Shown here piece after piece: positions 26,041 through 41,677 of a stretch of DNA of 64,000 nucleotides. The notes beneath the pieces were generated by a model that was given only the letters and a program-made list of their open reading frames with translations, searched no databases and was not told the origin of the DNA. How positions within the stretch are numbered: the stretch's first letter is position 1; each line of letters begins with the position of its first letter. This stretch comes from an uncultured delta proteobacterium. GTDB lineage: Bacteria; Desulfobacterota; RBG-13-43-22. The DNA is taken from positions 96,001-160,000 of the forward strand of contig CAWDKY010000053.1 in the NCBI GenBank assembly GCA_963802945.1, in the 5' to 3' direction. The position numbers and the translations under genes were made by a program.

Positions 26041-26108
26041 TCGGATCATTTAAAATCTTTCTTCTCCAGGGTAGGATACATTCAAATTTCAGTAAGGAGG
26101 TATTTGGT

Positions 26109-26420: not shown

Positions 26421-26438
26421 TCTTGGTCTCATTAGGTG

Positions 26439-26585
26439 TTAATGCTGACCAGGAAGCAGGCTATGTTCCTGGGATAGAAAATAGTGAGGTCCACCACCTG
26501 ATTTGTTTTTGATTTTACCCTCGACCAGCAGGGCCACCTCAAACTTCTGTTTGGAGATGTCAATCCCAAGGGTCGATGTGGGCAT
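26439..26585 (-). pseudogene. IS110-family recombinase N-terminal remnant
   Basis: GAGGGA RBS, MPTSTLGIDISKQKFEVALLVEGKIKNKS (GIDxxK, first catalytic Asp of the DEDD domain). Homology is lost after ~29 aa. Confidence 0.8.
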
Positions 26586-26634
26586 GTCAATTCCCTCTTT
26601 CAATCAGAAGAGACGTCTGATGAGTAAAAGCCTT

Positions 26635-26810
26635 ATCCGAATCAACCTTGCAAGTACAAACTCATTCCAATTATGGAAGGTTTCTGATACCGTACGAGTT
26701 GCTGAACAAAGCAAAGGGAAGAGGATCTAATCTACAAGACATGCTCTTAGGCATCAGGTGAAATACAAATTCTCTCTTCCCATATTACCCCAGCATCCCA
26801 GGGTATTTTA
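26635..26810 (-). ncRNA. Putative IS110 (IS621-like) bridge RNA in the element left end
   Basis: On the minus strand: 5' hairpin TACCCTGG/CTGGGGTA; target loop closed by GGGAAGAG/CTCTTCCC containing GT-ATTTCACCT ... TGTAGATT; donor loop ACGGTATC ... TTCCA-taat-TGGAA ... TTGCAAGGTTG. Motif order matches the IS621 bridge RNA as recalled (GTAGATT, ACAGTATC, TTGCAAGGTTG). Confidence 0.75.
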
Positions 26811-26838
26811 TATCACTTGATAATCCATTAGAACACAA

Positions 26839-26950
26839 GGTGTACTCGTTAAATTCTGTACGGTATGACTATTTTTTAGAAAACTTGTTGAGTTCTTCCC
26901 GAAGTCAGCAAGCCTTCGTTTTGGATAGAACAAAAGAGTTCAACAGTAAT
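26839..26950 (+). repeat. Island spacer element (copy E), cut at its GTAGGTG core by the IS110 left end
   Basis: ggtgtactcgttaaattctgtacggt...cttcccgaag...aagagttcaacagtaatc matches 30540-30560, 35521-35580 and 21466-21522. Confidence 0.7.
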
Positions 26951-27134
26951 CAACGAAAAAAATTGATACTTGCGGGACTTAAAAAGGGCAACGGCACGAT
27001 TTACCCATATTGGGTATATTGGCCAGGGGAAGTTAAACGGAAAGGGGGTATTTGTCCGATTTGTGATATTACAGAGTTAGAGATTTAGCCAAGCTGAACC
27101 CGTTTGATAATATTTTTACATCTATTGAGGGTAC

Positions 27135-27845
27135 TCAGGTCTTTTTTGCTACAACATAATAGAGCGCAACCGTCTCCTTGGAGGGCAGGTACCAAGGCCA
27201 GTCTTCCCCCGTTGGCTGCGTGTCCACGAGATCGATCCAACGAAAAGGCTTGATCAACTCGACACGAAAATGCTCCATAGATCTTCTGGCCATCTCTTGA
27301 ATCTCATGGCGTTTGAACACTACCCGCGCTGGTTTTGCACCTGGCTTGTGCTCAATCACGACGTTGCCACGGAATTCGGTCTGGGTCCCTTTGATCTTAT
27401 ATGTACCGCGCGTATGAAGAGAAAAAATTACTTCTTGTTTCGAAACTCGGGCCAGTTCTTTCAGCGCTCTCTCCACATCCCCTAACAGATAAAATAGCGT
27501 TTCCGCACAGAAGACCCGATCCACCGAGTCATCGGGCATCGGCAGGTGGAGTATATCAGCCAGGACAAGGCACACGTTAGGATAGCCGTTTGCCAATTCT
27601 GCGCTTTTAGCAAGCGCAACAGACGAAAAATCAATGCCAATAAACAAACCGCTTGGGCCACATCTCTTCATTAAATCGTGCAGATAAAAAGTATGTCCGC
27701 AGCCCACATCGCAGATTGTTTCTCCCGGCCTGATCTTCTCAATAGCGAGTTGATAAAAATAGCGGCCAGCTGCCTTTCCCTCCTTGGCTTGATCACTGAA
27801 GATCCTATCCCAGGTTACTCGCGCTTTATCTTCTCCTGACGTCAT
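27135..27845 (-). CDS. Class I SAM-dependent methyltransferase
   Basis: ICDVGCG, GIDFS, ADILHLPMPDDSVD, ALKELARV. Confidence 0.85.
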   Translation of the reverse strand: MTSGEDKARVTWDRIFSDQAKEGKAAGRYFYQLAIEKIRPGETICDVGCGHTFYLHDLMKRCGPSGLFIGIDFSSVALAKSAELANGYPNVCLVLADILHLPMPDDSVDRVFCAETLFYLLGDVERALKELARVSKQEVIFSLHTRGTYKIKGTQTEFRGNVVIEHKPGAKPARVVFKRHEIQEMARRSMEHFRVELIKPFRWIDLVDTQPTGEDWPWYLPSKETVALYYVVAKKT

Positions 27846-27992
27846 TTCCTCTTTATAACCTCAGGATGGTTAGCAAGTCTACAACCGACGTAACCGATTT
27901 GAGGTTTACTTCCCGCGTCTTGGCAGGCGAGATATCCAATCAAAAGAATTCTTGCCTTCTGCCTGGCACCGTTATTGCCTTGAATCCGTACG

Positions 27993-28397
27993 TCATTTAT
28001 GATGGCAGGTATTGCACCGTTCAAAGTTTTGCTGATGATGACAAGCAAGAAAGCAAGTATCTACATTGACCTTGGACAAATCGATTTTCCCCTTGGGTGG
28101 AATCGGATGCGTACTGTGACAGTCGGTACAATCCGGCACATTCTCGACCTTCTTTTCGTTATGTGGTATGAACCGGTGTGGGTTGATCATTTCGCCACTG
28201 GATGCCTTAAAGGACGGCTCCTTGGAAGCTAGTTTGTCAAATGATCCCCCGTGGCAGGTCAAGCAGGCTGTTGGTCCTTTTGCCGCTTCGTTGGCAGCAT
28301 CGGCAAACTTTATGGAGTGAGCCAGATATCCACCGCGAATGGAGGCCAAAACAAGAAATGCCCCGCACAGGACCAGTCGTTTAGCTTTTGTTTTCAT
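27993..28397 (-). CDS. Small periplasmic tetraheme cytochrome c
   Basis: Signal peptide; CLTCH, CTDCH, CFLACH (CX3CH), CNTCH; NPH motif. Confidence 0.85.
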   Translation of the reverse strand: MKTKAKRLVLCGAFLVLASIRGGYLAHSIKFADAANEAAKGPTACLTCHGGSFDKLASKEPSFKASSGEMINPHRFIPHNEKKVENVPDCTDCHSTHPIPPKGKIDLSKVNVDTCFLACHHQQNFERCNTCHHK

Positions 28398-28612
28398 GCT
28401 GTTTGTTCAGTCTAATGTTTTCGTCCTCAATTGGAGCAAGTCAATGGTCTAAGGTGAGGGTTGGAATAGGGTGGACCATGGGTTTTCAGGCCCACCCTAT
28501 CTCGATTTATAGCCGGTTATCAGAGGCATCCGAGGTGTTAAAAAACTTACAGTATTCGCTCGCGCCTCATCAGCCGACAAGTTCCAGGGATCGTGTCCCA
28601 AAGAGTGACCAA

Positions 28613-30199
28613 TTACTTCCAGGGTTTTTCAGCCGCTGCATTCCGTCCGGCAATACGACCAAAGGCCAGGCACTCGCCGATATTTCCGCCGCCGTTATAC
28701 AGGAACGAATACATCGACCCCAATTCACCGGCACTGTAAAGTCTTGGGATGGGCTTATCGTCGGGATCGACAATTTGCGCCTTGGCGTTGCGCTTGGGAC
28801 CGCCTTGCGTGTTCAAAATGCCGAGCGAGAGCCTCATAGCATAAAACGGCCCTTGTTTGATCGGCCCCAAGTTAGTCGCGGATCTGCCGAATTCGGCGTC
28901 AACGCCTTTGTTGCAGGCATCGTTCCATTTGTCCACCGTCTTCGTGAGGTTCTTGGGGTTTACATTGATTTTTGCGGCTAGGTCGGCGATGGTATCCGCC
29001 TTTTGGATCCAGCCCTTGGCAACCTCATCACTACAGTCTTTGCTGAACTGCATCTTTTTCACAACAGACGCCCAACCCATCACCCTGGCAAGCCCAAAGG
29101 GTGACCCGGCCTTGTTATCCATGATGAGGTAGGCAGGCACGGGCAGCGGAGTCGGACGCCAGACAGAGTTGAGTTTCATATAGCCGTGGTTAGAGCGGGT
29201 GTCTTCGTCGAAATAACGATTGCCGTCTCCATCCACATAGATATAACCCGCTAAAGGCTTCCCATCCACCTTGGCGGTATTTGGAAAACATAATAACCCA
29301 AAATCGGTATTCGGGACCTTAAAAGCTGGCATCATTCCGGATTGGGCGCTCATGTGCCAGAGATTTGCGCCGACCTTGATGGCCATCTTTACACCGTCGC
29401 CGGTATTGTATGGTGTGCCGAACGGCGCTATTTCCGGGATTGCGTTATAGTCACGAATCATCTGCGGATCGTTCTCATAACCACCGCAGGTCATGACAAC
29501 GGCCCGCTTGGCTTTAATAGCAAATGGCTTGCCGCCACGCTCCGCGATCACGCCTAAGATATCTCTTGTCTTCGGATCCTGGACAAGGTTTTTCGCGGCA
29601 GTGGTAAAAAGAACCTCGATCCCTCTTTTGTTCACCGCAGCCTGAAGAACTTTCCATAGCCGTTCCTGCCCCCACCCTCCTGGGGATGCGAAATAGGTCT
29701 TAGATGAATCAGAGCCCGGAAATTCTGGAAATTCGGGTGAGCAGAATGCGCTCTGCGGATTAGCAAGCGACGGGTTACCTCCAATCCTTTTGACCCAATC
29801 GGCGTTTTTTCCCATCTCATCGGCCCAGACTGTCAGTATGTCATCAGGAATTGGCATTCCATCCGCCATCGCCTTCATGTAGGTAATGGCTTTGCCAGCC
29901 GGTGTAGGGTTAAACCAAAGATTCCCCGCTACGCGGGTGTTGCCGCCCTCTTCACCTTCGGGAGCCTTCTCGATTATAAGAACCTTTGTTCCGGCATCCG
30001 CTGCGGTAATAGCAACGGACGCACCTGCACCTCCGTAACCAATAACGACTACATCGACGGCCTTATCCCACTTTTTGGGAATAGAAACAGCGGCCTCCGT
30101 CGGGGTAGTGCTCAACGCGGTGGTAGCCGCGACAGCCGCACTTGCAATGGCGGCATCCTTGAGGAATTCTCTACGCGTCATCTTGTTCTTTTTTAACAT
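28613..30199 (-). CDS. Tat-exported FAD-dependent oxidoreductase (flavocytochrome c / FAD_binding_2 family)
   Basis: TRREFLK Tat motif, DVVVIGYGGAG, GGNT, NTGDG, TQGGP, IPRLYSAGE. Confidence 0.88.
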   Translation of the reverse strand: MLKKNKMTRREFLKDAAIASAAVAATTALSTTPTEAAVSIPKKWDKAVDVVVIGYGGAGASVAITAADAGTKVLIIEKAPEGEEGGNTRVAGNLWFNPTPAGKAITYMKAMADGMPIPDDILTVWADEMGKNADWVKRIGGNPSLANPQSAFCSPEFPEFPGSDSSKTYFASPGGWGQERLWKVLQAAVNKRGIEVLFTTAAKNLVQDPKTRDILGVIAERGGKPFAIKAKRAVVMTCGGYENDPQMIRDYNAIPEIAPFGTPYNTGDGVKMAIKVGANLWHMSAQSGMMPAFKVPNTDFGLLCFPNTAKVDGKPLAGYIYVDGDGNRYFDEDTRSNHGYMKLNSVWRPTPLPVPAYLIMDNKAGSPFGLARVMGWASVVKKMQFSKDCSDEVAKGWIQKADTIADLAAKINVNPKNLTKTVDKWNDACNKGVDAEFGRSATNLGPIKQGPFYAMRLSLGILNTQGGPKRNAKAQIVDPDDKPIPRLYSAGELGSMYSFLYNGGGNIGECLAFGRIAGRNAAAEKPWK

Positions 30200-30489
30200 T
30201 TGGATTTCTCCTTTCTGCAATTCGTTCATTGATATAAAGACAACATCTTGCCTACAATTTACGTGGCAACAATAGCATCCTTTATCCGTCCACGATCATG
30301 TCAGCTTGGAGAACTTGGAGTGAGTGGAGTGATTTAAAGTAATTGTAAATATAGGTTTCGGCATTGTCAATAAAATAAACAAGGTTGTTTAAGGTGCATA
30401 TTTGAGTAATGTGCCTGCACTTTATTCGGGTTAAAAGATGGACCAGAATCATCCTAACTTGCACACCCCCTAAGCTTAACAATATCGAT

Positions 30490-30790
30490 TAATAATTTCT
30501 ATTTTTCTCATAAACCATAACTTCACGCTTCGTAGATATTCGTTAAATTCGGTACGGTGAGGCCATGTTTGAAAAAATTGAGGATTTCTCCCGTATTCTT
30601 CAAAATTCTCTTTTTGAAAAACCTAAGACTTCAAATAGTAATCCTCATCAAGTCGGCAGGAGATTTAAACCATTGGCCAATCAACCAGAAATCCCCACCC
30701 AAACCTAAAGCCCCCGAACTTCAGATAGACTACTTGGAATCCCAGCTTCCTTTCTATGAGGAAACCCAAGATTAGGATTTCGGAGTTTCC
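30490..30790 (+). repeat. Island spacer element (copy F)
   Basis: ttcgtagatattcgttaaattcggtacggt...taatcctcatcaagtcggcaggagatttaaaccattggccaatcaaccagaaatccccaccc...ELQIDYLESQLP. Confidence 0.75.
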
Positions 30791-31202
30791 TCATATCATT
30801 GAACCCCTCTATCTTGCCTTATGCCCCAATCTTGGCTCATACGCCAAAAGCCGCAAATCCCTCAGATCCAGCGGTTCCATTGAGTGGGTGCTGGAGAGGT
30901 TGTCCATTTAAAGGTAGGTGGAAGCCCTAGAGGATGGATAATGAATTCAGGCTTGGTGACGCCCAAAGTGGAACAGACCAGCCCTTCCAGGGCCTGTAGT
31001 AGCAACCCAAAAAGTAATTTGGCTGGAAAGCTACAGTTTTTTAAACGAAACTAATAATCTCGGATACTCACGGGCCTTTTTTCTAGCCGAGGCCTTGGGC
31101 TGGTTCCGTCACCGGCAACAATAGACCTTGAAAAAAGTAAACAAAAAGTATAACTTTAAAATATGTATTAATATATAATACAGCGTAGTTAGGAGAAATA
31201 CA

Positions 31203-32456
31203 ATGCCGATGACAGTTGCCGAGAAGATACTAGCCAAAACTTCGGGCAGAGAAAGCGTAAGGCCCGGCGAATATGTTACGGCCACTATAGACAAGTTCAT
31301 GTGCCATGAAGCGTTTGCGGCCGTTTACCTGAACCTTATATCGGTCGGAATCACCCAAATACCATATGCCGACAGGGTATTGGTCTTCCTCGACCACTAT
31401 GTACCGGCTCCGACTCAACGTGCCGCGGCAATTCATCAGTTGGTACGGAGCGGTGTCGAGAAATTGGGCATTATACATTATCACGGCGAACGCGTGGGAA
31501 TCGCCCACCAGGCAATGATGGAGCTGGGGCACGTTCATCCCGGTGAACTTATCGTTGGAACTGATTCACATACCTGCACTTATGGAGCTCTAGGCGCTGC
31601 GGCCACAGGTATAGGCATTTCCGAAATGACCTATGCGATCGCGACCGGCGAATTGTGGTTTCGTATTCCCGAGACCATACGGATTGTCCTATCCGGTCAA
31701 ATCCGATTTCCGACCATGTCCAAAGACATCATCTTGGCAATCGCGGGGGACTTTTCGTCTGAAGTTGCGCAGTATAAATCGATTGAATTTGCGGGTCCAG
31801 CTGCTCAGGCCATGAGTATTGACAGCAGGATAACCATGAGTAACATGTCGGTGGAAATCGGCGCCAAGTTCGGGCTTTTCGAGTTCGACGACAAGGCTTC
31901 CTTATATCTCGGACCTGCAAGTGTTGGCCTGTCCGGTGTGTATGCTGACATAGATGCGCAATATGAAAAAGTGTATCAGATAGAAGTAGGGAATGTCGAG
32001 CCACAGGTAGCTTTACCCCACTCTGTTGACCACGTTAAACCGGTGTCTCAAGTTAAAGACGTGCTGATAAATCAGGCGCTATTGGGCTCCTGCACAAATG
32101 GCCGTCTCGAAGACCTCGAGATAGCCGCATCTCTTATTAAGGGGAGGAGAATACATGACCAGGTTCGTATGCTTGTTATTCCTGCTTCCTGGAACATATA
32201 TCAACGCGCCTTGGCAAATGGGACACTCTCGACGCTGGTTGAAGCCGGCGCCTTGGTCTTAAATCCCGGATGTGGCCCTTGTTTTGGATCTTACGGAGGA
32301 CTGCTTGCTCCTGGAGAACGCTGCATCTCTAGCACCAACAGAAATTTCAAAGGACGCATGGGCAGCAGTGAGGCAGAGGTATATTTGGCTTCACCCGCCA
32401 CGGTCGCAGCGTCTGCCCTAACAGGCCAAATAACAGACCCGCGGGAAATTATGTAG
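31203..32456 (+). CDS. 3-isopropylmalate/homoaconitate/dimethylmalate dehydratase family, large subunit
   Basis: DH, GIAHQ, GTDSHTCTYGA, GSCTNGR, CGPCFG, STNRNFKGRMG. Confidence 0.92.
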   Translation: MPMTVAEKILAKTSGRESVRPGEYVTATIDKFMCHEAFAAVYLNLISVGITQIPYADRVLVFLDHYVPAPTQRAAAIHQLVRSGVEKLGIIHYHGERVGIAHQAMMELGHVHPGELIVGTDSHTCTYGALGAAATGIGISEMTYAIATGELWFRIPETIRIVLSGQIRFPTMSKDIILAIAGDFSSEVAQYKSIEFAGPAAQAMSIDSRITMSNMSVEIGAKFGLFEFDDKASLYLGPASVGLSGVYADIDAQYEKVYQIEVGNVEPQVALPHSVDHVKPVSQVKDVLINQALLGSCTNGRLEDLEIAASLIKGRRIHDQVRMLVIPASWNIYQRALANGTLSTLVEAGALVLNPGCGPCFGSYGGLLAPGERCISSTNRNFKGRMGSSEAEVYLASPATVAASALTGQITDPREIM

Positions 32457-32471
32457 GCAAGAGAGAGATCA

Positions 32472-33011
32472 ATGAATGAGATAAAAGGGAAAGTCTGGAA
32501 ACTGGGAAACAATATTGATACAGATCTCATTGCACCTGGGCAGTATCTGGATGCTCCAATGGATGAGGTGGCCAAGCACGTATTTGAGAGTATTAGGCCA
32601 GAATTTGCAAAAGAGGTGCATAAAGGTGACATCCTTATTGCGGGTAGAAATTTCGGATGCGGCTCAAGCCGGGAGAATGCCCCTGAGGCGCTTAAAAAGC
32701 TAGGCATTGGCTGCATCGTAGCCGAATCATTTGCACGTATCTTCTTCCGCAATTCGATTGCGATAGGTCTTCCGGTTGTCATATGCCACAACATTTCATC
32801 GGTGTTTAACGAAGGAGAAATTGCCAGCATAGACTTCAGACAAGCATGCATTCAGAATATTTCCAAAGGGGTCGAGATTCACGGTGAGACCTTCTCGGAT
32901 GAAATATTGTCTATAGTGGAGAGCGGAGGAATCCTAGAAAAGATCAAACAGAATAGAAAATCATTGAAAGGAGGCAATTGTGAAACGCAAGAAATTACGG
33001 ACAAAGATTGA
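32472..33011 (+). CDS. Dehydratase small subunit (LeuD/DmdB type)
   Basis: NIDTDLIAP, NFGCGSSRE, SFARIFFRN. Confidence 0.92.
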   Translation: MNEIKGKVWKLGNNIDTDLIAPGQYLDAPMDEVAKHVFESIRPEFAKEVHKGDILIAGRNFGCGSSRENAPEALKKLGIGCIVAESFARIFFRNSIAIGLPVVICHNISSVFNEGEIASIDFRQACIQNISKGVEIHGETFSDEILSIVESGGILEKIKQNRKSLKGGNCETQEITDKD

Positions 33012-33843
33012 AACTAAAAATTTTGTCCAGGCACCGGGCGTTTATGACTCTCTGACGGCGAAGATTGTTGAGGCGCAGGGGTTTGATGCCCTATACATGA
33101 CCGGCTACGGGACGGCAGCCAGCAAATTCGGGCTACCTGATACGGGATTCCTTACTCTAACCGAAATGGTGGATAACGCAGGCCGCATTGCCGATGCCGT
33201 AAATATCCCCCTGATCGCTGATGCCGATACGGGATACGGGAATGCCATAAACGTTGTACGCACGGTCCGCGAATTTGAGAAGGCCGGGGTGGCTGCCATC
33301 CATATTGAGGATCAGACCTGGCCCAAGCGATGTGGACATATGGCTGGCAAGAGCGTCATCGACGCCAAAGAGATGGTCGCGAAGATCAAAGCCGCGGTGG
33401 ATGCCCGTATAGATCCGAATTTTCTTATTATAGCCAGGACTGATGCACTCGCCACCCACGGATTTGAACAGGCCATCGAACGCGGACAGATGTATGCCCA
33501 GGCTGGCGCAGATATCCTCTTCATCGAGGCTCCAATTAATAAGGAGCAGGTTGAACAAATTCCACGGTTGCTATCTCCCAGGCCCACCCTTTTGAATTTG
33601 GCCCCCCGCACTCCAAATTTTTCCCGTGAAGAGATAGAAAACATGGGGTATGCCGTTGCTATCTATCCCGGGGTCTGTCTGGCCGCGGTGATTTCCGCCT
33701 GCACCGAGGAAGTAAAAAGGCTGAAGGAAACCGGCAAATCGCGTGATTGGGGCGACTCGTTGCAATCGTTTCTCGATCTCAATAATTTTTTGGGCGTCAA
33801 TTATTACAATGAACTGGAACAAAAGTATAAAGCCCAGGATTAA
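32980..33843 (+). CDS. Isocitrate lyase/PEP mutase family lyase (PrpB / 2,3-dimethylmalate lyase-like)
   Basis: DADTGYG, IEDQ..PKRCGH, IIARTDA. Confidence 0.92.
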   Translation: MKRKKLRTKIETKNFVQAPGVYDSLTAKIVEAQGFDALYMTGYGTAASKFGLPDTGFLTLTEMVDNAGRIADAVNIPLIADADTGYGNAINVVRTVREFEKAGVAAIHIEDQTWPKRCGHMAGKSVIDAKEMVAKIKAAVDARIDPNFLIIARTDALATHGFEQAIERGQMYAQAGADILFIEAPINKEQVEQIPRLLSPRPTLLNLAPRTPNFSREEIENMGYAVAIYPGVCLAAVISACTEEVKRLKETGKSRDWGDSLQSFLDLNNFLGVNYYNELEQKYKAQD

Positions 33844-33909
33844 ACGGACCATCGGCCTTCCGGCCAAGTGAAGGCTGGTGTAAGAATAAAAATAAAATTG
33901 GAGGAAATT

Positions 33910-35349
33910 GTGGATAGATTAAAAGTGTCGGCCTCTCGTGAGGCAAGTGATCCCAACGGGCCGACTGGACGTCTGGCGACATGGTTGACAAATCTTAAAC
34001 TGGAGGATGTACCAGCCCCCGTACAAGAAAGGGCCAAATACCTGATGCTGGATGGACTGGGATGTGCCATCGTTGGAGCCAAATTACCGTGGTCGATTAC
34101 AGCGGTAGATACCGTGTTACCTCTCGAAGGCCGGGGTGATAAGACGGTCATCGGCTGGGGAATAAAGACCAGCACGCCCGGGGCCGCTCTTTTAAACGGT
34201 ACATTTATCCAGGGCTTTGAGCTTGATGATTTCCATCCCCTTGGCATTCTCCACAATGCATCGTTAGTGGTTCCGTCTTTACTGGCTTGCGCCGAGCAAA
34301 TCGGAGATGTCAACGGAGATCAACTTCTCAAGGGGATGATCGCCGGTTTTGAAGTAGGTCCCAGGGTCGGCATGGCCTTACATGGCGGTGAAATGTTGAC
34401 TAGGGGATGGCATAGCGGATCGGTTTTTGGAACGTTCGCCAGTGCTGCCGCCGCAGGCACCCTTCTTAAGCTTGATCCCGCCGGATTTGAGGACGCCCTG
34501 GGCCTGGCCGGGACACAGTCCGCCGGATTGATGGCCGCGGAGTTTGAAGCCATGAGCAAGCGCATGCACCATGGTTTCAGCTCCCGGAACGGTCTCTATG
34601 CGGCCTTTCTGGCGGCCGGCGGTTACACAGGTATAAAGCGGGTCTTTGAACGCCCTTATGGAGGTTTTCTTTCCACCTCCGGCGAAGGGCACTCCCCTGA
34701 CGAGTCACAAATCTGTGATACGCTGGGCAAGGTATGGGAAACAGATCGCATCACCCTTAAGCCCTACGCGGCCCAGGGCGGACTTCATAACCCACTGGAC
34801 TGCCTATTCGAAATCAGCACCAAGCGGCCTCTCCATGCCGATGAAATAGAAAGCATCGATATCGAGCTCTCGGAATCCATGTTCCATCATGGATGGTGGA
34901 TTTTAGAACGCCCCTTATCGACTATTGGAGCGCAAATGAACGTTGCTTATGTCATCGCTGTGGCGATATTGGACGGGGCCGTCCTGGTTCAGCAGTTTTC
35001 GCCGCACCGCATTGGTAGCGATGATGTCTGGGAACTCATTCCCAAAATTACCGCCCATCATAACCCGGAGTTTGACGCTCTCGGTCCTATGGGCCGCGGG
35101 CGCACCCGTTTAAAGATAAAATTCAAGGATGTCAGCATCCTTGAATCGATCAGGATGGTTCCCCGTTCCATCGAAAAGCCCCTCAGTAATCAGGAGATAG
35201 CAGAGAAATACCGGGCTTTGACCCATGGACTGATTGATCAACACCGGCAGGCGGAGATTGAAGCGAAAGTGGTCTCCTTGGAAAAACTGCGCAATATCAG
35301 GGAATTAATCGCCTTGCTGGCCGATCCGGTAGGATCTGCCTTCGAATAG
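33910..35349 (+). CDS. MmgE/PrpD family protein, cis-aconitate decarboxylase (CadA)-like
   Basis: ERAKYLMLDG, FIQGFELDDFH...LH, GWHSG, KRMHHGF..RNG, ERPYGGFL, QMNVAY. GGAGG RBS before GTG 33910. Confidence 0.85.
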   Translation: MDRLKVSASREASDPNGPTGRLATWLTNLKLEDVPAPVQERAKYLMLDGLGCAIVGAKLPWSITAVDTVLPLEGRGDKTVIGWGIKTSTPGAALLNGTFIQGFELDDFHPLGILHNASLVVPSLLACAEQIGDVNGDQLLKGMIAGFEVGPRVGMALHGGEMLTRGWHSGSVFGTFASAAAAGTLLKLDPAGFEDALGLAGTQSAGLMAAEFEAMSKRMHHGFSSRNGLYAAFLAAGGYTGIKRVFERPYGGFLSTSGEGHSPDESQICDTLGKVWETDRITLKPYAAQGGLHNPLDCLFEISTKRPLHADEIESIDIELSESMFHHGWWILERPLSTIGAQMNVAYVIAVAILDGAVLVQQFSPHRIGSDDVWELIPKITAHHNPEFDALGPMGRGRTRLKIKFKDVSILESIRMVPRSIEKPLSNQEIAEKYRALTHGLIDQHRQAEIEAKVVSLEKLRNIRELIALLADPVGSAFE

Positions 35350-35385
35350 CCATGGTTCCGTCCACAAACAATAAAAGAGGTGATC

Positions 35386-35460
35386 TGGGGTGGTCCCCAA
35401 AAATTGGACAAGGTGATAAGCCCTGAGTTAGCCCAAAGGAAGCGGCGATGTCCAACCATT
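35386..35460 (+). mobile_element. Solo IS3-type left end (second copy)
   Basis: TGGGGTGGTCCCCAAAAATTGGACAA..tgataagc.ctga, as at 22409. Confidence 0.6.
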
Positions 35461-35464
35461 TCTC

Positions 35465-35600
35465 CCATATTTCCATCCGTACTCGTTAATTTTTCGGTTT
35501 ATCTGTTTAAAGCATTAGTAGGTGTACTCGAGGAATTCGCTAAAGTAAGACCATTTTCGAGAAAACTTGAGGGCTTCTTCCTGTAATGTTGTTTTTCTTA
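35465..35600 (+). repeat. Island spacer element (copy G, 5' part; uninterrupted equivalent of the IS110 site)
   Basis: atatttccatccgtactcgttaatt...cattagtaggtgtactcg...gaccattttcgagaaaacttgagggcttcttcctgtaatgttg. Confidence 0.65.
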
Positions 35601-35719
35601 TTTTATAAATTTATGCAACCTTTCAATCAGAAATAATCAAAAAAGCTGAACTCAAAATTAATATGTGGTACAAGTATTTGGGACAGGTATGCTTCAATAC
35701 AAAATAGCAGGGTGGCGTA

Positions 35720-36109
35720 ATGAATAAACAATTACGAAGCATAATTGCGGTAATACTCACTTGCATTTGGGTGAATGCATCTGAGTTTTTTAGAAATGAG
35801 ATTCTTCTAAAAACATATTGGGTTGACCATTATCAATCACTCGGAAATGCTTTTCCCTCTGAACCGAAGAATGGAATGATATGGTTTGCATGGGGATTAT
35901 TGTTTGCCATAGCTATTTATTTAATCTCAAAAAAATTCAATTTAATACAAATGGCACTCATCAGTTGGCTTATGGCATTTGTTTTGATGTGGGTTGTTAC
36001 TTTGAATCTAAACGTACTCCCAATTGCTATTCTTATTTATGCTGTTCCACTGAGTCTGTTTGAAGCCTTTCTGGGTTCTTATATTTGTATAAAGATATCT
36101 CCAAATTAA
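35720..36109 (+). CDS. Hypothetical 4-TM membrane protein, integron-cassette-like
   Basis: AT-rich, four hydrophobic helices, attC-like site 6 bp after the stop. Confidence 0.7.
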   Translation: MNKQLRSIIAVILTCIWVNASEFFRNEILLKTYWVDHYQSLGNAFPSEPKNGMIWFAWGLLFAIAIYLISKKFNLIQMALISWLMAFVLMWVVTLNLNVLPIAILIYAVPLSLFEAFLGSYICIKISPN

Positions 36110-36115
36110 TTGAAC

Positions 36116-36173
36116 ACATAACCCACCAATCAACCGGACGACTTTCATTAAGCGGTTATCCGTGGCGTTTCAT
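36116..36173 (+). other. attC-like site
   Basis: ACATAAC...AATCAACCG...CGGTTAT...GTTTCAT: AAC/GTT core with L boxes showing an extra base. Confidence 0.55.
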
Positions 36174-36286
36174 CTTTAAAATAATAATTTATCAAATTAA
36201 GACATTTCAAAGTCGTTTGTTTTCTTCCATTAATATAAAAAAGGAGGTTCTTATCAATAAAGAATACCTGTGACGAAAAATAATCC

Positions 36287-36334
36287 TTGACAAACAATAA
36301 ATGTGTGGATATATATATGCATAAGAACATATAT
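36287..36334 (+). promoter_or_regulatory. sigma70 promoter overlapped by a palindromic operator (likely PadR autoregulation)
   Basis: TTGACA (36287), 17 bp, TATATA; inverted repeat ATATATG-N8-CATATAT at 36313-36334. Confidence 0.6.
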
Positions 36335-36357
36335 TCACCATAACATAATGAGAAAAA

Positions 36358-36927
36358 ATGTCTTTACCGCACGCACTGCTCGGATTGCTGAGTTACAGAC
36401 CAACGACCGGATATGATTTGAAATTGGCTTTTGCCAGTTCAATCGGAATGTTCTGGGACGCTTCCTTGCCCCAAATTTACAGGACTTTAGGACAAATGGG
36501 AAAAAACGGCTGGTTGTCTTATCGTATCGAGCAACAAAACGGCAAACCAAACCGTAAAATCTATAGCCTTACCGCTTCAGGCAAAAAAGAATTAAATGAA
36601 TGGTTAAGTAAGCCGCTGGAATTTCCTAAGGTAAGAAAGAATGAGATGCTGATAAAAATATTCTTCGGCAACAAAATCAGCAAGAAAGATTTAATAAAAC
36701 ATTTCAAAGAATGGCGTGGCAGTGCAGCCTCATTGCAAAAAAAATTAGAAAAGGACGTCAAGCCGATTGTCGCTCACTATGGTGACGTAACAGGCGCAAA
36801 GAATGATATGTATTTCTGGCTTTTAACCGCTGATTATGGACGGCGGCACGCCAAAATGATTGTGGAATGGTGTGATTCCGCGTTGGATTTTCTAGAAAAA
36901 GGGGAAAAGATTAAAATTAATAGATAA
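36358..36927 (+). CDS. PadR-family transcriptional regulator
   Basis: MSLPHALLGLL...TGYDL...WDASLPQIYRTL...KPNRKIYSLT..GK.EL..WL. Confidence 0.93.
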   Translation: MSLPHALLGLLSYRPTTGYDLKLAFASSIGMFWDASLPQIYRTLGQMGKNGWLSYRIEQQNGKPNRKIYSLTASGKKELNEWLSKPLEFPKVRKNEMLIKIFFGNKISKKDLIKHFKEWRGSAASLQKKLEKDVKPIVAHYGDVTGAKNDMYFWLLTADYGRRHAKMIVEWCDSALDFLEKGEKIKINR

Positions 36928-37061
36928 GAAAACAACTTGTGAATTTTAAAATTATCCGGGAGGAGTTATTTCATCATTTGGAGACTTTAGATTTAAAAAT
37001 ATTTTTGGAAGAAATAATATCTGTTCAATAATTGCATCACATAAATCATGAGGAGGATGAA

Positions 37062-38126
37062 ATGAAAGTATTGGCCCTTAATTCCAGTGCCAGAGTCGGG
37101 GATGTGAGCAAAACAGAAATTATGCTGGACTGTCTGGTCCATGGGATGCGTGAGGCCGGGGCCGAAGTAGAAGTCATTAACCTGCAAAAAAAGAAAATCA
37201 GATACTGCAGCGGATGTTTCACCTGCTGGACCAAAACTCCCGGTCTGTGCATTCACAAAGATGATATGACCAAGGAAATCTTTCCCAAATGGTTAGCCTG
37301 CGACCTGTGTGTGCTGGCTACCCCCCTTTTTCATTATACCATCAATGCCCTAATGAAAACCTTTATCGAAAGAACCCTTCCGGCCGCCTTGCCTTTTTTC
37401 GTGGAAAGAGACGGGGTCACAAGGCATCCTCGTCGGTACGAATTGCCTTTGGTGGCTGTAGTTTCCGTGGCCGGGTTTCCCGAGGAAAGTGTTTTCGATC
37501 AGCTCAAGCCTTATATAAACTTCTTATTCAGAGACCGATTGGTAGCTGAAATTTATAGAACCTCGGCGGAAATCCTTCGAGCCGACACCAAGAACGAAAA
37601 ACTAAGGGACATCCTTGCGGCCACAATCCAGGCGGGAAAAGAATTAGTTAAAACTGGAAAAATTTCTCCGGAGACCATGGAAAGGATCAAAAACCCCATA
37701 ACCGACTTCAAAAAAATGGCACCGATTGGAAATTGCGCCTGGCAAACCTGTATTGACGAGAGAGTTACCATGGGAGAATTTCAAAAACGGAATATGGTGC
37801 CCCGTCCCGATTCGATTGGAACATTCCTGGCTATCATGAAGATGGCTTTCAACCCCACAAAGGCTGGAGATGCCAAAGTGACCATGCAGTACAACTTCTC
37901 CGGCCAGGTGGAAGGCCGCTGTTATTTTTCCATTGAGAATGGAGAATTAAAGGCAGAGGAGGGGCAAATTGCCAACCCTGACTTGACTATTGAAACACCT
38001 TTTGAAGTTTGGATGGATATCCTTACCGGTAAAGCCGAAGGGGCTCAGATGCTGATGGACGGCAAATATTCAGTCTCCGGCCAAACAGACCTGCTTCTCA
38101 AAATGAACCAATTCTTCGGGGAATGA
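37062..38126 (+). CDS. Iron-sulfur flavoprotein (flavodoxin-like) fused to an SCP2 sterol-carrier domain
   Basis: MKVLALNSSAR, CSGCFTCW...C..KDDM, ATP, MKTFIER. C-terminal PDLTI...W.DI..GK.EG.QMLM.GKY.V.G. Confidence 0.85.
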   Translation: MKVLALNSSARVGDVSKTEIMLDCLVHGMREAGAEVEVINLQKKKIRYCSGCFTCWTKTPGLCIHKDDMTKEIFPKWLACDLCVLATPLFHYTINALMKTFIERTLPAALPFFVERDGVTRHPRRYELPLVAVVSVAGFPEESVFDQLKPYINFLFRDRLVAEIYRTSAEILRADTKNEKLRDILAATIQAGKELVKTGKISPETMERIKNPITDFKKMAPIGNCAWQTCIDERVTMGEFQKRNMVPRPDSIGTFLAIMKMAFNPTKAGDAKVTMQYNFSGQVEGRCYFSIENGELKAEEGQIANPDLTIETPFEVWMDILTGKAEGAQMLMDGKYSVSGQTDLLLKMNQFFGE

Positions 38127-38149
38127 ACTATGACGGCTTCTCAAAATGA

Positions 38150-38335
38150 GGCGTGCATTCCGGACCGCTGCCGGCTACAGTTGGCCGAACTGCTCAGGCC
38201 ATAAGCCACCTCGACTTTTCCAACGCTGAGTTCCATGACATGAAAATGCAGCCATCCCTGGAAAGAGCATTGAGGCATAAAGAGATATTAAAGGAATAAG
38301 ATTATGGCCTTGCCTTTTTACGCACATTTCAATCG
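38150..38335 (+). pseudogene. TPR-protein C-terminal remnant followed by GCACATTTCAA
   Basis: RLQLAELL...AISHLDFSNAEFHDMKMQPSLERALRHKEILKE*, homologous to 41390..41656. Confidence 0.7.
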
Positions 38336-38383
38336 GAGCATTGCCTGGTTGGAACGCATCAAATCTTAATAAGGAGCAAGGAA

Positions 38384-39748
38384 ATGACAACTGCAGCGGA
38401 AGCATTAAGCGAATTCACCTATAATCTCAAGTACGAAGATCTTTCGAATGGCGTTGTTAAAAAAAGTAAGCAATTACTCCTGGACACTCTGGGCTGCGCG
38501 CTCGGCGGATACTTAAGCGAGCCAAGCCGTATTGTGCGAAGCATGGTCAAGGATCTGGGGGGCAGACCCGAAGCGACTGTTATCGGGAGCGGAGACAGGA
38601 CTTCCAGCCCGAACGCTGTTCTGGCAAATTGTGTCATGGTTCGGTATCTGGATTTTATGGATATTTACTTTAATAAGGATGGTTGTCATCCAAGTGAGAA
38701 CATTCCTACGGCTTTAGCCGTGGGAGAACGGACCCAAGCCCTTGGCAAGGACCTGTTAACGGCCATCGTGATTGGATTCGAAATACAGCAGCGGTTCGCC
38801 GACGCCATACCCTGTCATTTATTACAATGGCATCATGTGACCATTGCCGGATATGTTACACCTCTGATAGCCGGCAAGTTGCTCGGGTTGAACCAAGATC
38901 AATTAACCCATGCCGTCGGCATTTCTGGGAGTCATAATCACGCCCTTGCTGACTTACTGGGCGAATGGTGGCGAGGGACTGGCCAAATCAGTATGATGAA
39001 GGCTATTGGTTATGGATTCGGTTCCCAGAGCGGGATCATAGCTGCACTCCTGGCCCAGAAGGGCTTTACCGGGCCGAACACGATCATTGAGAGTTTTGGC
39101 CGGGTGGTGGCCAAGGAAGAGAACTTGGCCCCAATCATTAGCGGTGGGGATCGATTTAAAATTCTAGATACCAGTCTCAAGGCCTATCCCTCCGAGTACC
39201 TATCGCAAAGTTCCTTAGACGCCATGTTCGAGTTGATCAGGAAGCACAACATCCAAGCTGAGGACGTCGAAGCTATCAATATCAAAACCCACTCATACGT
39301 ATCCATCCTGACCCAGCTGTCATCCTACAAACCAGAAACACGGGAGTCTGCAGACCACAGCCTGCCTTACTGTCTAGCTGTGGGCCTGATCGAGGGCGAG
39401 CTTGGACCGGACCAGTTCAAACGAGAACAATGGAAGGACCCAAAGGTCCTTGACTTGATGTCTAGGATCAAGATCGAGATCGATAAGGAACTTAGCGCAC
39501 TCTATCCCCCGGCCAGACCGGTGATCCTGGAAATCAGAATTAAGAATGGAGAATGCTATAAAACCCGCGTAGATTATCCACGGGGCGATCCGCATAACCC
39601 GATGACGGACAAGGAAACCGAGGCCAAGTTTAAGAAACTGGCCGGGAATTTAATCCAGGAGAGTCAGATGCGGGAGATTATTGACCTTGTCAATCATATC
39701 GAAGAGATTTCCAACGTGTCGGAATTGATGGAGCATCTGGTTGTTTAA
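38384..39748 (+). CDS. MmgE/PrpD family protein (2-methylcitrate dehydratase-like)
   Basis: LLDTLGCA, RYLDFMD...CHPSENIP, TRESADHSLPY, PRGDPHNPM. Confidence 0.9.
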   Translation: MTTAAEALSEFTYNLKYEDLSNGVVKKSKQLLLDTLGCALGGYLSEPSRIVRSMVKDLGGRPEATVIGSGDRTSSPNAVLANCVMVRYLDFMDIYFNKDGCHPSENIPTALAVGERTQALGKDLLTAIVIGFEIQQRFADAIPCHLLQWHHVTIAGYVTPLIAGKLLGLNQDQLTHAVGISGSHNHALADLLGEWWRGTGQISMMKAIGYGFGSQSGIIAALLAQKGFTGPNTIIESFGRVVAKEENLAPIISGGDRFKILDTSLKAYPSEYLSQSSLDAMFELIRKHNIQAEDVEAINIKTHSYVSILTQLSSYKPETRESADHSLPYCLAVGLIEGELGPDQFKREQWKDPKVLDLMSRIKIEIDKELSALYPPARPVILEIRIKNGECYKTRVDYPRGDPHNPMTDKETEAKFKKLAGNLIQESQMREIIDLVNHIEEISNVSELMEHLVV

Positions 39749-39807
39749 TCAAGGGTTGGAATGCCGTTACCCATAACAACCTGTTTGGATGTATGGCAGG
39801 GCGATGA

Positions 39808-39877
39808 GCATCTTCAGCAAGTAGGAGACACAAAGGGCTTTTTTTAGTTTGTAGATATTAGTATTGGCCTGCGTGGA
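39808..39877 (+). repeat. ~70-bp direct repeat, copy 1
   Basis: gcatcttcagcaagtaggagacacaaagggctttttttagtttgtagatattagtattggcctgcgtgga, about 4 differences from 41328..41398. Confidence 0.9.
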
Positions 39878-39956
39878 CGACTTTCTCACAGGGAATTTTG
39901 GCCTGATTTTTGGCCGTCGTTAATACTTAATATTTGGGTAAAAGGAGGAATTAAAT

Positions 39957-41186
39957 ATGATTAAAAAAACGATTCACCTGATACTTGTTATTGCTGTTGC
40001 CGTTTCTTTCTGGGTTTGTTTTGACACTTTATCCGCTGCGGCGGCGGATCCGTCCCTCAGCCCTTTTCAAGATGTGGAGAACTTCGGACCACTAAGAAGG
40101 CTAATGGTCTGGTCGCCGAGACAAAAACTGGCCGGCTTCCGAAACATAAATAAACTCTATCCAACCAGAAAGGTCGAGCGGGGGGACCATGTCTATCCCC
40201 TTTGTCAAGAGCCCATAGATTTATCCGGGGTGCGCTACGAGGTTAACGGAAAAACATATACGTTTAATGATTTTATCTCTCACAATAAGGTTGTGGGGTT
40301 TTTGGTCATTAAAAATGATCGAATCGTGGCAGAACGTTATGAAATGGGGAATACGGACACCGCACGGTGGATCGCCTTTTCCGTTACCAAATCAGTGGTT
40401 CCCTTGTTGGTGGGGGCGGCGATTCATGATGGCTTCATCAAAAGCATCGATGATAAATTAACCGATTATATCCCTCAATTAAAAGGATCAGCCTATGATG
40501 CAGTTTCCATTCGGAACTTGCTTCAGATGGCGTCGGGAGTGGAATGGAATGAAGATTACATGGACCCCAAATCAGATGTGAATACCATGCCTATGAGCGA
40601 CATGGTGAAGTTTTACGAGTTTCTCAGCAAGAAAAAGCGGGTAGCCAAGCCGGGTGAGAAATTTAACTATAATACCGCTGAAACAAGTCTTGCGGGAGCG
40701 GTAGTGCGAGCTGCCATTGGAAATAACCTGTCCACTTATCTGTCGAATAAAATCTGGGAGCCTTTTGGAATGGAATCAGACGGCTACTGGTGGCTTCAAG
40801 GACCGGGCGGAGGTGAGATTGCCGGAATGGGTCTCAATGTAACCCTCCGAGATTTTGGACGTCTCGGGCTCTTTGCCTTGAATGAGGGAAAACTTGCCAA
40901 TGGCGTCCGCGTCCTGCCTGAGAATTGGATGAAAGAATCAACAACTCCATCCAAAGGCTATCCGGGCTATGGCTATTTCTGGTGGCTTGGGATGAATGGG
41001 AAAAAAAATGTTTATTCAGCACGGGGAATTTTCGGCCAGCTCATATACATCGATCCGGATCAGAATCTGGTCATCGCCACTCAGAGTATATGGGACTACC
41101 CTGTGTCAGATTTATTTGAGTCGCATCGGAATGCATTTGTGACCGCGGTTGATGATTATCTCCGCACCCATGGGCCTAAAAATTGA
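39957..41186 (+). CDS. Secreted serine hydrolase (class C beta-lactamase / 6-aminohexanoate-dimer hydrolase family)
   Basis: Signal peptide, FSVTKS (SxxK), LLQMASG, FNYN (YxN), YGYFWW, ARGIFGQ. Confidence 0.9.
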   Translation: MIKKTIHLILVIAVAVSFWVCFDTLSAAAADPSLSPFQDVENFGPLRRLMVWSPRQKLAGFRNINKLYPTRKVERGDHVYPLCQEPIDLSGVRYEVNGKTYTFNDFISHNKVVGFLVIKNDRIVAERYEMGNTDTARWIAFSVTKSVVPLLVGAAIHDGFIKSIDDKLTDYIPQLKGSAYDAVSIRNLLQMASGVEWNEDYMDPKSDVNTMPMSDMVKFYEFLSKKKRVAKPGEKFNYNTAETSLAGAVVRAAIGNNLSTYLSNKIWEPFGMESDGYWWLQGPGGGEIAGMGLNVTLRDFGRLGLFALNEGKLANGVRVLPENWMKESTTPSKGYPGYGYFWWLGMNGKKNVYSARGIFGQLIYIDPDQNLVIATQSIWDYPVSDLFESHRNAFVTAVDDYLRTHGPKN

Positions 41187-41320
41187 AAAAGAAAGTCCTT
41201 GGTCAACTCCAGGCATCTTTATTATGAGCATTAACCTTGCCAAGCGCAGAGACATGTTACAAAAATTATCTAATGTGAAATGGGATATTTTGGTTTTTGA
41301 TAAAAGCCATTTGTTATTGA
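41187..41320 (+). pseudogene. SNF2/helicase internal fragment
   Basis: SPWSTPGIFIMSINLAKR...WDILVFDKSHLL, resembling a decayed WDxxxxDEAH motif. Confidence 0.45.
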
Positions 41321-41327
41321 ATGGTGT

Positions 41328-41656: not shown

Positions 41657-41677
41657 GGCTTTGACTCTGCTTTTTTA

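Follow-up and report, generated by a model that had tools for sequence, protein, structure and literature searches.

Itaconate and its isomers citraconate and mesaconate are metabolites with immune and antimicrobial roles and are also bulk bio-based chemicals, and itaconate and alkyl-itaconates are abundant products of fungi. For the fermentation of nicotinate by Eubacterium barkeri, Alhapel et al. reportedly described in 2006 a dimethylmaleate branch that consists of the isomerase Mii, the hydratase DmdAB and the lyase Dml. Coenzyme A (CoA)-dependent degradation of itaconate and methylsuccinate involves Ict, Ich, Ccl and Mcd together with the MmgE/PrpD-family methylsuccinate isomerase Msi, according to an excerpt of PMC12290011. 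An excerpt of PMC9875883 presents a route through CoA esters as the only bacterial itaconate route known at the gene level, and the cluster that it describes uses neither citraconate nor (R)-citramalate. Here we describe a four-gene operon at positions 31203-35349 of a 64,000-nucleotide stretch of DNA (the window; contig CAWDKY010000053.1, positions 96,001 to 160,000) from an uncultured delta proteobacterium of the Desulfobacterota. The operon is a real, intact and widely conserved module, most likely catabolic, built from known enzyme families, its genes are linked across phyla and its MmgE/PrpD protein is placed away from PrpD; the substrate that we tentatively infer for it is of the itaconate type.

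The open reading frame (ORF) listing together with the Pfam and NCBIfam models gave four intact genes in one direction and with tight spacing:

31203-32456, + strand: LeuC/DmdA-type large subunit of the aconitase family, 417 residues (Pfam Aconitase, 4.8e-92)
32472-33011, + strand: LeuD/DmdB-type small subunit, 179 residues (Aconitase_C, 5.9e-18)
32980-33843, + strand: C-C lyase of the PEP-mutase/isocitrate-lyase superfamily, dimethylmalate-lyase/petal-death-protein-like, 287 residues (PEP_mutase, 7.2e-52)
33910-35349, + strand: MmgE/PrpD enzyme, likely GTG start, 479 residues; the longest ORF runs from 33868 and has 493 residues (MmgE_PrpD_N, 8.4e-67; MmgE_PrpD_C, 2.8e-32)

The original prediction, made from the letters of this DNA, had named these four linked genes at the same positions and had remarked that leuA, leuB and prpC do not accompany them. 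Both statements agree with our data: among the 40 ORFs scanned out of 79 window ORFs of at least 110 residues, mainly non-nested ones, there was no leuA, leuB, prpC, CoA transferase or module-type regulator. Shine-Dalgarno-like sequences precede the starts of the first three genes, with AGGAG 7 nucleotides 5' of the ATG of the large-subunit gene and AGGAGG ahead of the GTG of the lyase gene, which overlaps the small-subunit gene by 32 nucleotides. The start of the MmgE/PrpD gene is likely the in-frame GTG at 33910 rather than 33868, because GGAGG lies 5 nucleotides upstream of it and the resulting 479 residues equal the length of the homologues. All four proteins align end to end with their relatives and none is interrupted; by contrast, several other genes of the window and of the genome are split. 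A look-up of sequencing runs that contain the operon gave three DNA runs (shares of 0.22, 0.09 and 0.09) and no RNA run. Rfam at the gathering threshold found no RNA family in positions 26000-42000, and scans for promoters and terminators were not above the shuffled expectation (8 against 9.5, standard deviation 3.2, and 9 against 7.0, standard deviation 2.7, respectively).

We propose that the operon encodes a self-contained, CoA-independent and redox-neutral catabolic route of three steps, with every reaction, substrate and direction as we infer them. In the first step the MmgE/PrpD enzyme would convert an imported acid to a 2-methylmaleate-type acid, preferably by a 1,3-proton shift from itaconate (or a 3-alkyl-itaconate) to citraconate (or a 2-methyl-3-alkylmaleate) by way of the same dienolate that related fungal decarboxylases would reach through loss of CO2. 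In the second step the iron-sulphur (Fe-S) hydratase of the LeuCD type would add water to give (R)-citramalate (or a 2,3-dialkylmalate), and in the third the isocitrate-lyase-family enzyme would cleave this product to pyruvate and acetate (or a longer carboxylate). The general scheme, that is, an MmgE/PrpD step followed by hydration of an alkylmaleate and a pyruvate-forming cleavage, is probably correct, and the version that begins specifically with an itaconate isomerase is possible but doubtful.

The MmgE/PrpD protein belongs to the superfamily of that name (PF03972 with 225.4 bits and PF19305 with 112.3 bits, against a cut-off of 32.1). It passes none of the PrpD equivalog models TIGR02330, NF006943 and NF042438, the sole match being to NF042438 with 35.5 bits against 950, and it is 23% identical to E. 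coli PrpD (K-12 record) over 244 residues (E 2e-4). Among solved structures the best match is IDS epimerase (6.4e-35), followed, at about 1e-23 to 1e-25, by the Bacillus 'IRG1' and by cis-aconitate decarboxylases of mammals. A word-indexed search returned 2514 relatives among 7997 scored candidates, and the best 120 of the 2514 are mostly 63-81% identical, with the JGI names 'aconitate decarboxylase' or 'PrpD'. An exhaustive search of 50%-identity representatives gave 17712 matches, in which the nearest clusters beyond the protein's own are 41-48% identical. Among the 20 representatives that were looked up, three of the nearest are fungal, namely a 'putative immune-responsive protein' of Paecilomyces variotii (48%) and proteins of Exophiala (44%) and Aspergillus section Nigri (43%); a fungal protein named SpoK is 42% identical over the full length. 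A profile built from the three fungal sequences led to a large fungal family that includes proteins named SpoK and 'cis-aconitate decarboxylase'. A. terreus CadA itself appeared neither under the names in the 20 representative clusters nor in the best 120 matches of this profile. We call CadA-like this fungal family with the names 'immune-responsive protein', 'cis-aconitate decarboxylase' or SpoK, in a comparison that covers members other than Aspergillus terreus CadA itself; overall its proteins are 42-48% identical to the window protein over the full length. A look-up in the protein atlas returned generic MmgE/PrpD clusters only, and no fused form longer than 840 residues was found. A 1.12-Mb contig of another record encodes a protein of 332 residues (P0019) that is 99% identical to the window MmgE/PrpD and covers 65% of it; a near-identical genome seems to carry, or to call, a shortened copy.

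A maximum-likelihood tree of 81 proteins (LG+G4; ultrafast bootstrap/SH-aLRT), whose fungal rows are likewise other than A. terreus CadA, places the window protein inside a bacterial clade of 29 rows with support of 99/96. The 17 fungal proteins form a single clade (100/100), and the bacterial and fungal clades are joined, together with one further representative, with support of 100/99. Far outside this grouping are E. coli PrpD, the paralog encoded at 38384 of the window and a third paralog, from contig C32. The window protein is a member of the bacterial sister clade of the fungal CadA-like family, and by these comparisons it is not PrpD. The original prediction had looked to such a phylogeny to tell the protein from canonical PrpD, with which it does not group. 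It had also likened six segments of the protein to A. terreus CadA. All six are present in the translation, and 46-51 of their 65 residues match those of five fungal CadA-like proteins, so that the likeness stands for the family, A. terreus CadA itself lying outside the comparison. The segments were further said to be unlike the paralog at 38384, which is borne out by 17 of 65 matching residues there and 14 of 65 in E. coli PrpD. This second MmgE/PrpD paralog (38384-39748, 454 residues, 28% identical to the operon protein) is not a canonical PrpD either (best PrpD model 117.9 bits against a cut-off of 950). It lies in a separate cassette, beside genes for an FMN-reductase/SCP2 protein and a beta-lactamase-fold protein.

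In a survey that took one genome for each species, 79 loci have an MmgE/PrpD homologue that is 50-71% identical to the window protein, and metagenome contigs gave another 80. Linkage was counted in the 65 loci whose homologue is 50% or more identical and which extend 4.5 kb or more to either side. A full set of LeuC, LeuD and lyase homologues lies within 4.5 kb of the MmgE/PrpD gene in 47 of them, and at least one of these partners does in 54. Chance falls far short of explaining this linkage. Most Proteobacteria, Acidobacteriota, Binatota and others have the arrangement lyase-leuC-leuD-mmgE, Mycobacterium, Nocardia and their kin have mmgE-lyase-leuC-leuD, and the window has leuC-leuD-lyase-mmgE. 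Unbiased clustering of the non-overlapping flanking ORFs yielded eight recurrent families only:

MmgE/PrpD family: 126 loci
LeuC family: 73 loci
Lyase family: 54 loci
GntR/UTRA regulator family: 41 loci
LeuD family: 36 loci, with a further cluster of 10 loci that has no Pfam match
PEBP family: 24 loci
MFS transporter family: 16 loci
TctC receptor family: 12 loci

No regularly attached CoA ligase, CoA transferase, dehydrogenase or prpC came out of this clustering. The module therefore looks self-contained, since no CoA-activating or redox enzyme is regularly attached to it. With tblastn, a PEBP gene was found in 46 and the regulator in 57 of the 159 loci, many of which are short. A PEBP domain is also present in the same polypeptide as the MmgE/PrpD enzyme, at its N-terminus, in A. 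terreus P0343 (643 residues) and A. ambiguus P0374 (539 residues), and over 98 residues the A. terreus domain shares 41% identity with the PEBP of the Bradyrhizobium module; the fungal fusion could be a merged gene model. In the locus of Roseomonas alba (L043:1365-4027), genes for a PrpF-family isomerase and a TctC protein lie directly upstream of lyase-leuC-leuD-mmgE. PrpF was seen in one of the nine loci inspected, and its presence in R. alba hints at an extra isomerisation step in some carriers.

The company of the module also bears on its direction. If the lyase condensed pyruvate with a carboxylate, LeuCD then dehydrated the product and the MmgE/PrpD enzyme finished an itaconate-like compound for export, the operon would be biosynthetic. 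This would agree with the fungal relatives, which we take to be biosynthetic, and with the MFS transporters beside some modules, which could serve export. However, the module is accompanied by receptors of the uptake type (TctC, ABC binding protein) and by GntR repressors of the HutC type, and on established chemistry a condensation without activation by CoA would be thermodynamically unfavourable, so that a biosynthetic direction is scarcely credible.

The lyase has prpB as its best NCBIfam match, but it passes neither prpB model (TIGR02317, 281 against a cut-off of 354.4; NF008455, 250.5 against 353). Its best solved matches are the 2,3-dimethylmalate lyase of A. niger (3fa3, 2e-62) and the petal death protein (1zlp, 1.6e-61), and methylisocitrate lyases rank behind at 3e-58 and weaker. 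The closest solved structures are dimethylmalate lyase and oxaloacetate hydrolase for the lyase of the Bradyrhizobium module, and the petal death protein for the Mycobacteroides one. We aligned the window lyase with 40 of the 60 full-length module lyases and E. coli PrpB. The window lyase keeps the catalytic set of PrpB (Y43, D58, D85, D87, E115, the KRCGH loop, R158, E188 and N210), and the KRCGH loop and the catalytic Asp/Glu/Arg set are kept in 39 or 40 of the 40 module lyases. The methyl pocket is also retained, as F186, P236 and an I in place of L234. In place of PrpB residues T212, R241 and R270, which we take to bind the distal carboxylate in the succinate moiety, the window lyase has A, A and F. 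Among the 40 module lyases the first of these positions is V throughout, the second is G or A in 23, R or K in 11 and another residue in 6, and the third is V, P, L or I in 38. Because the methyl pocket is kept and the residues presumed to bind the distal carboxylate are lost, the substrate may be read as of the 2-methylmalate type. The pocket would fit a 2-methylmalate with H or alkyl at C3, for example (R)-citramalate or 2,3-dimethylmalate, and not 2-methylisocitrate. In our reading the kept methyl-pocket residues would make the window lyase pyruvate-forming.

These results bear on a more familiar explanation, in which the operon is the lower half of the 2-methylcitrate cycle, with a 2-methylcitrate dehydratase, a stand-in for aconitase and a 2-methylisocitrate lyase, and serves the disposal of propionyl-CoA. 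The three enzyme families are the same, and the lyase resembles PrpB both in its nearest NCBIfam model and in the KRCGH loop. The failure of the PrpD and PrpB equivalog models, the distance of E. coli PrpD from the window protein and the loss of T212, R241 and R270 speak against it, as do two observations on citrate synthases. A search of the genome for the citrate synthase family PF00285 gave no match, at a marker completeness of 100% and a contamination of 6.7%, and prpC is not regularly linked to the module in other genomes. The PF00285 search gave a match in 13 of 14 control genomes; a Re-type citrate synthase, from another family, may serve the organism, or it may have none. Four independent tests count against the methylcitrate reading, which is highly improbable.

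The hydratase gives a similar picture. The large subunit passes NF001614 (522.5 bits against a cut-off of 385) and stays below the LeuC equivalog TIGR02083 (433.9 against 610.65), and the small subunit passes TIGR02087 'LeuD/DmdB family' (187.7 against 108.95) and stays below the leuD equivalog TIGR02084 (171.9 against 245.85). The canonical leuA-leuC-leuD-leuB set is elsewhere in the genome, on contig C17, and the pair in the window does not have the character of a leucine-biosynthesis LeuCD. In the LeuD/DmdB-family small subunit and in a lyase whose closest solved match is dimethylmalate lyase, the operon resembles a DmdAB/Dml module. The nearest structure of the large subunit is the isopropylmalate/citramalate isomerase of Methanocaldococcus jannaschii (4nqy/4kp1, 6e-117), followed by homoaconitase (4kp2, 3e-98), and that of the small subunit is an isopropylmalate/citramalate isomerase small subunit (3vba, 1.2e-45). 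The large subunit contains the Fe-S cysteine motifs GSCTNG and GCGPCFG, and the specificity loop of the small subunit is DTDLIAPGQYLDAP. The window LeuC is 53-54% identical to two paralogs of its own genome and at most 43% identical to module LeuCs elsewhere. The LeuCD of the Bradyrhizobium module passes the NCBI cut-offs for bacterial leuC and leuD, and the mycobacterial one is of the archaeal type. In total, three unrelated LeuCD lineages are paired with one conserved MmgE/PrpD enzyme, and across the module the identity is 50-69% for MmgE/PrpD and 42-52% for the lyase. This variety of LeuCD beside a conserved MmgE/PrpD enzyme and lyase suggests that the required activity is already present in ordinary isopropylmalate isomerases. 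Hydration of citraconate or a similar small alkylmaleate would fit this expectation.

The active site of the MmgE/PrpD enzyme was compared with those of characterised relatives. Chen et al. (PMC6789909), in an excerpt, give D93, T97, H103, H159, K207, K272, H277 and Y318 as critical residues of mammalian cis-aconitate decarboxylase (CAD). Aligned to mouse CAD (7br9), the window protein reads E, gap, H, H, K, K, Q and F at these positions, so that the eight-residue set of CAD/IRG1 is kept in four places (H103, H159, K207 and K272). According to the same excerpt, A. terreus CAD and IDS epimerase have all four as well, and three of them (H103, K207 and K272) also occur in 2-methylcitrate dehydratase. 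Therefore, the kept residues cannot tell which reaction takes place. An excerpt of PMC12290011 states that all characterised MmgE/PrpD-family enzymes act via an enolate at C2 of a 1,4-dicarboxylate.

One branch of the family, established in that excerpt, consists of epimerases, and the window enzyme might likewise invert a stereocentre, as IDS epimerase and methylsuccinate isomerase do, and so allow both isomers of a substituted malate or succinate to enter the hydratase-lyase pair. IDS epimerase is indeed the best solved match. In excerpts of PMC6789909 and PMC12290011, Tyr145 of IDS epimerase is the second catalytic base, and the latter reports a Tyr likewise for methylsuccinate isomerase. 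In the window protein, unlike these enzymes, the position is occupied by Met (in GGEMLTRGWH), as aligned to IDS epimerase with the Msi sequence outside the comparison. The Met speaks against an epimerase, and the protein has a low identity to IDS epimerase beside the 42-48% that it shares with fungal CadA-like proteins. Epimerisation is very unlikely.

The invariant positions of the bacterial clade point towards the fungi. Of the 47 polar positions that hardly vary in this clade, all three fungal subclades share 36, E. coli PrpD shares 9 and the window paralog at 38384 shares 15. Positions 189, 209 and 218 tell the groups apart; at position 209 all 29 bacterial and all 8 PEBP-type fungal proteins have D, and all 6 members of the SpoK/CAD-named group have S. 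Both a decarboxylase and a dehydratase have to be weighed against these data. A CadA-type enzyme would convert cis-aconitate, or an alkyl-aconitate, to CO2 and citraconate, or to itaconate that is then isomerised, perhaps by PEBP, and the hydratase and lyase would yield pyruvate and acetate. In a variant LeuCD would also make aconitate from citrate, for a net conversion of citrate to CO2, pyruvate and acetate without citrate lyase. The 36 shared positions and the names cis-aconitate decarboxylase and SpoK in the sister clade agree with this explanation, as do the JGI name 'aconitate decarboxylase' of many members, the TctC tricarboxylate-type receptors that adjoin some modules and the PrpF-family isomerase upstream of the Roseomonas module. 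However, the JGI names were assigned automatically, the fungal relatives in the tree, whose rows do not include A. terreus CadA, are putative decarboxylases, and the change from D to S at position 209 suggests that the bacterial and the SpoK/CAD-named groups may differ in function. Moreover, aerobic carriers can send cis-aconitate into the citric acid cycle, so that a dedicated operon seems unneeded. On balance we regard decarboxylation as unlikely.

A dehydratase would instead act like PrpD and take water from a tertiary hydroxy acid whose stereochemistry puts it out of reach of the Fe-S hydratase. It would, for example, convert (S)-citramalate to citraconate, which LeuCD would rehydrate to the (R)-isomer for cleavage by the lyase, and thus apply the logic of the methylcitrate cycle to a dicarboxylate. 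The three enzymes follow the logic of PrpD, aconitase and PrpB, citramalate-type substrates would fit the lyase pocket, and dehydration is an established reaction of the family in an excerpt of PMC12290011. On the other side stand the 23% identity to E. coli PrpD over 244 residues, the 9 of 47 polar positions in common with it and the nearest characterised relatives, which are decarboxylases and epimerases. This explanation is distinctly unlikely.

We prefer the isomerase to these alternatives because the module is self-contained, fungal itaconate and alkyl-itaconates are abundant, aerobes need no cis-aconitate route and the CoA route skips citraconate and (R)-citramalate. The original prediction had spoken of conversion of a tricarboxylate to a maleate-type acid, hydration and cleavage to pyruvate without CoA. 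Comparative evidence backs this scheme, including the conserved neighbourhood that it had proposed to check, which holds all three partners in 47 of 65 loci from several phyla. A tricarboxylate as the starting compound is not favoured over a dicarboxylate such as itaconate.

Several observations weigh against the proposed route. The sequence of the MmgE/PrpD enzyme cannot separate an isomerase from a decarboxylase or a dehydratase. In 11 of the 65 loci no partner lies within 4.5 kb of the MmgE/PrpD gene, and the seven of these that were inspected have mixed neighbours, among them an amidase, an AMP-binding enzyme, TctC and PEBP. PEBP, which accompanies many modules and is fused to a fungal orthologue, has no role in the scheme. 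The argument from the lyase pocket is affected by the R or K that 11 of 40 module lyases keep at position 241, and the roles of PrpB residues 186, 212, 234, 236, 241 and 270 are those reportedly described by Liu et al. in 2005 and, for the reading of the pocket, also by Grimm et al. in 2003. The LeuD loops differ by lineage (YLD in the window, AMK in actinobacteria, RIERLT in proteobacteria), and the module hydratases of different lineages may not all have the same substrate. Finally, the usual regulator, transporter and PEBP are absent from the window, which makes the function in the present host uncertain. As a compromise between the general scheme and the itaconate version, the explanation as a whole falls somewhat short of an even chance.

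The host genome contains further copies of these enzymes. On contig C15 (L173:5378-8224), a LeuC (419 residues, 53%), a LeuD (174 residues, 49%) and a lyase (319 residues, 41%, with KRCGH) follow each other in the order of the window without an MmgE/PrpD gene, flanked by small GIY-YIG ORFs before and by MFS and TauE genes after. This trio suggests that the hydratase and the lyase form a unit by themselves. Further lyase copies are present on contig C34. In a region of that contig (L174:4214-12639) a LeuC copy has an in-frame TAA, and a family III CoA-transferase and a lyase copy are each split in two. In the window, an acyl-CoA dehydrogenase is split into two ORFs (1813-3634), and a UvrB-like ORF (4117-4953) has the N-terminal domains only and is followed by an ORF without a Pfam match (4928-5611). 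The broken genes on C34 and in the window could be assembly indel errors or decay. No PEBP gene was found in the host genome.

No orthologue of the MmgE/PrpD gene at E 1e-60 or better was found in 40 relatives of the host (13 from its genus, 7 from its family and 20 from its phylum). The operon is bounded by recurrent non-coding elements:

30537-30752, no strand assigned: recurrent non-coding element at the upstream cassette boundary (direct-repeat families D1, D3 and D5)
35386-35581, no strand assigned: recurrent non-coding elements at the downstream cassette boundary (families D11 and D8)

Families D1, D3 and D5 have more copies at 21314-21629 and 25798-25964, and the copies align. Downstream, 35386-35426 is 90% identical to 22409-22449 (D11), and 35520-35581 is 76% identical to 26838-26899 (D8). 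The elements, about 250-400 nucleotides long and in one orientation, lie between gene groups in a region of the window that spans roughly 17 to 42 kb, with copies at 17184-17470, 21314-21707, 25798-26041, 26838-26899, 30537-30752, 35386-35581, 38196-38320 and 41553-41677. A promoter-like stretch, TTGAC-N17-TATACT, ends some of the copies. The four-gene operon is one unit of this element-separated array. Because its MmgE/PrpD orthologue was not found in the 40 relatives and the recurrent elements bracket it, we conclude that the operon is a horizontally acquired accessory cassette without the usual regulator and transporter.

Other genes of the window were also considered. In the neighbouring cassette, divergent from the operon, lies a gene for a 538-residue FAD_binding_2 flavoprotein with a twin-arginine signal (RREFLK...; 28613-30229, - strand). 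It is of the fumarate/urocanate-reductase type, far under all curated cut-offs, and could be an extracytoplasmic reductase of an unsaturated acid. A role as a linked itaconate-type reductase was rejected, since the gene belongs to the neighbouring cassette and passes no curated model. Tandem genes for bifunctional aldehyde/alcohol dehydrogenases of the AdhE type (44017-46683 and 47362-50013), and a glycyl-radical enzyme with a radical-SAM activase and two crotonase genes (57569-63131), are typical of anaerobe metabolism and unrelated to the operon.

A cofactor-light module of three enzymes would fill the citraconate/(R)-citramalate gap left by the CoA-dependent route, would offer simple parts for engineering and may explain the use of such acids by soil mycobacteria, Burkholderiales, rhizobia and some anaerobes. 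With this module, the bacterial proteins most closely related to the fungal CadA family are placed in a defined operon, which makes the origin of itaconate biosynthesis testable. If the proposal is true, a CoA-free route would allow fermentation of itaconate by strict anaerobes, which a 2025 paper describes as not yet known for any bacterium; the bacterial ancestor of the fungal itaconate-forming decarboxylases would be identified, and the orphan fungal dimethylmalate lyase would gain a physiological role. For the host genome the result is modest, an accessory cassette without the usual regulator or transporter. It is quite doubtful, though conceivable, that this is the first CoA-free and redox-neutral route for itaconate and fungal alkyl-itaconates, made up of a CadA-like isomerase, an isopropylmalate-isomerase-type hydratase and a dimethylmalate-lyase-type lyase.

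The dimethylmaleate branch of E. barkeri is similar to the proposed route in that an itaconate-type acid becomes a maleate-type acid, is hydrated by an Fe-S enzyme of the LeuCD type and is cleaved by an isocitrate-lyase-family enzyme to pyruvate and a carboxylate. The small subunit in the window passes the LeuD/DmdB model and the best solved match of the lyase is 2,3-dimethylmalate lyase, in a comparison that did not extend to the E. barkeri proteins. Unlike in the window, where it belongs to MmgE/PrpD, the first enzyme in E. barkeri is of the PrpF family. Neither PrpF nor an E. barkeri-type B12 mutase (2-methyleneglutarate mutase) was found among the window ORFs scanned, and no upstream nicotinate genes (the B12 mutase and others) are present in the operon or regularly linked to the module.

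The lower half of the 2-methylcitrate cycle (PrpD, AcnB/AcnA, PrpB) uses the same enzyme families, the KRCGH loop and the same sequence of an unsaturated acid, rehydration and cleavage to pyruvate, but the hydratase in the window is of the two-subunit isopropylmalate-isomerase type and a methylcitrate synthase was not found in the genome. The CoA-dependent itaconate route also converts branched C5 dicarboxylates to pyruvate and a C2 unit and includes an enzyme of the MmgE/PrpD family, whereas the window operon has no CoA transferase, CoA hydratase or CoA lyase. The isopropylmalate/citramalate isomerase of M. jannaschii is the best solved match of both hydratase subunits; it differs in the small-subunit loop, which is YLV in the archaeal protein and YLD in the window, and the window pair lies outside a leucine or isoleucine operon. 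With the fungal CadA/SpoK decarboxylases the window enzyme shares a sister-clade relation (100/99), and PEBP is fused in one fungal subgroup and is a neighbouring gene in bacteria. Unlike the fungal genes, the bacterial one stands in a catabolic-looking operon with a hydratase and a lyase, and not with citrate synthase or an exporter.

Full-text literature searches, which did not cover supplements, found no description of the four-gene set, and none of the closest described systems has the enzyme combination of the window. What our study adds to them is the cassette status of the operon in a genome that lacks a citrate synthase family gene, the argument from the lyase pocket, the independent recruitment of LeuCD, the PEBP fusion and the sister relation of the bacterial MmgE/PrpD enzyme to the fungal CadA-like family.

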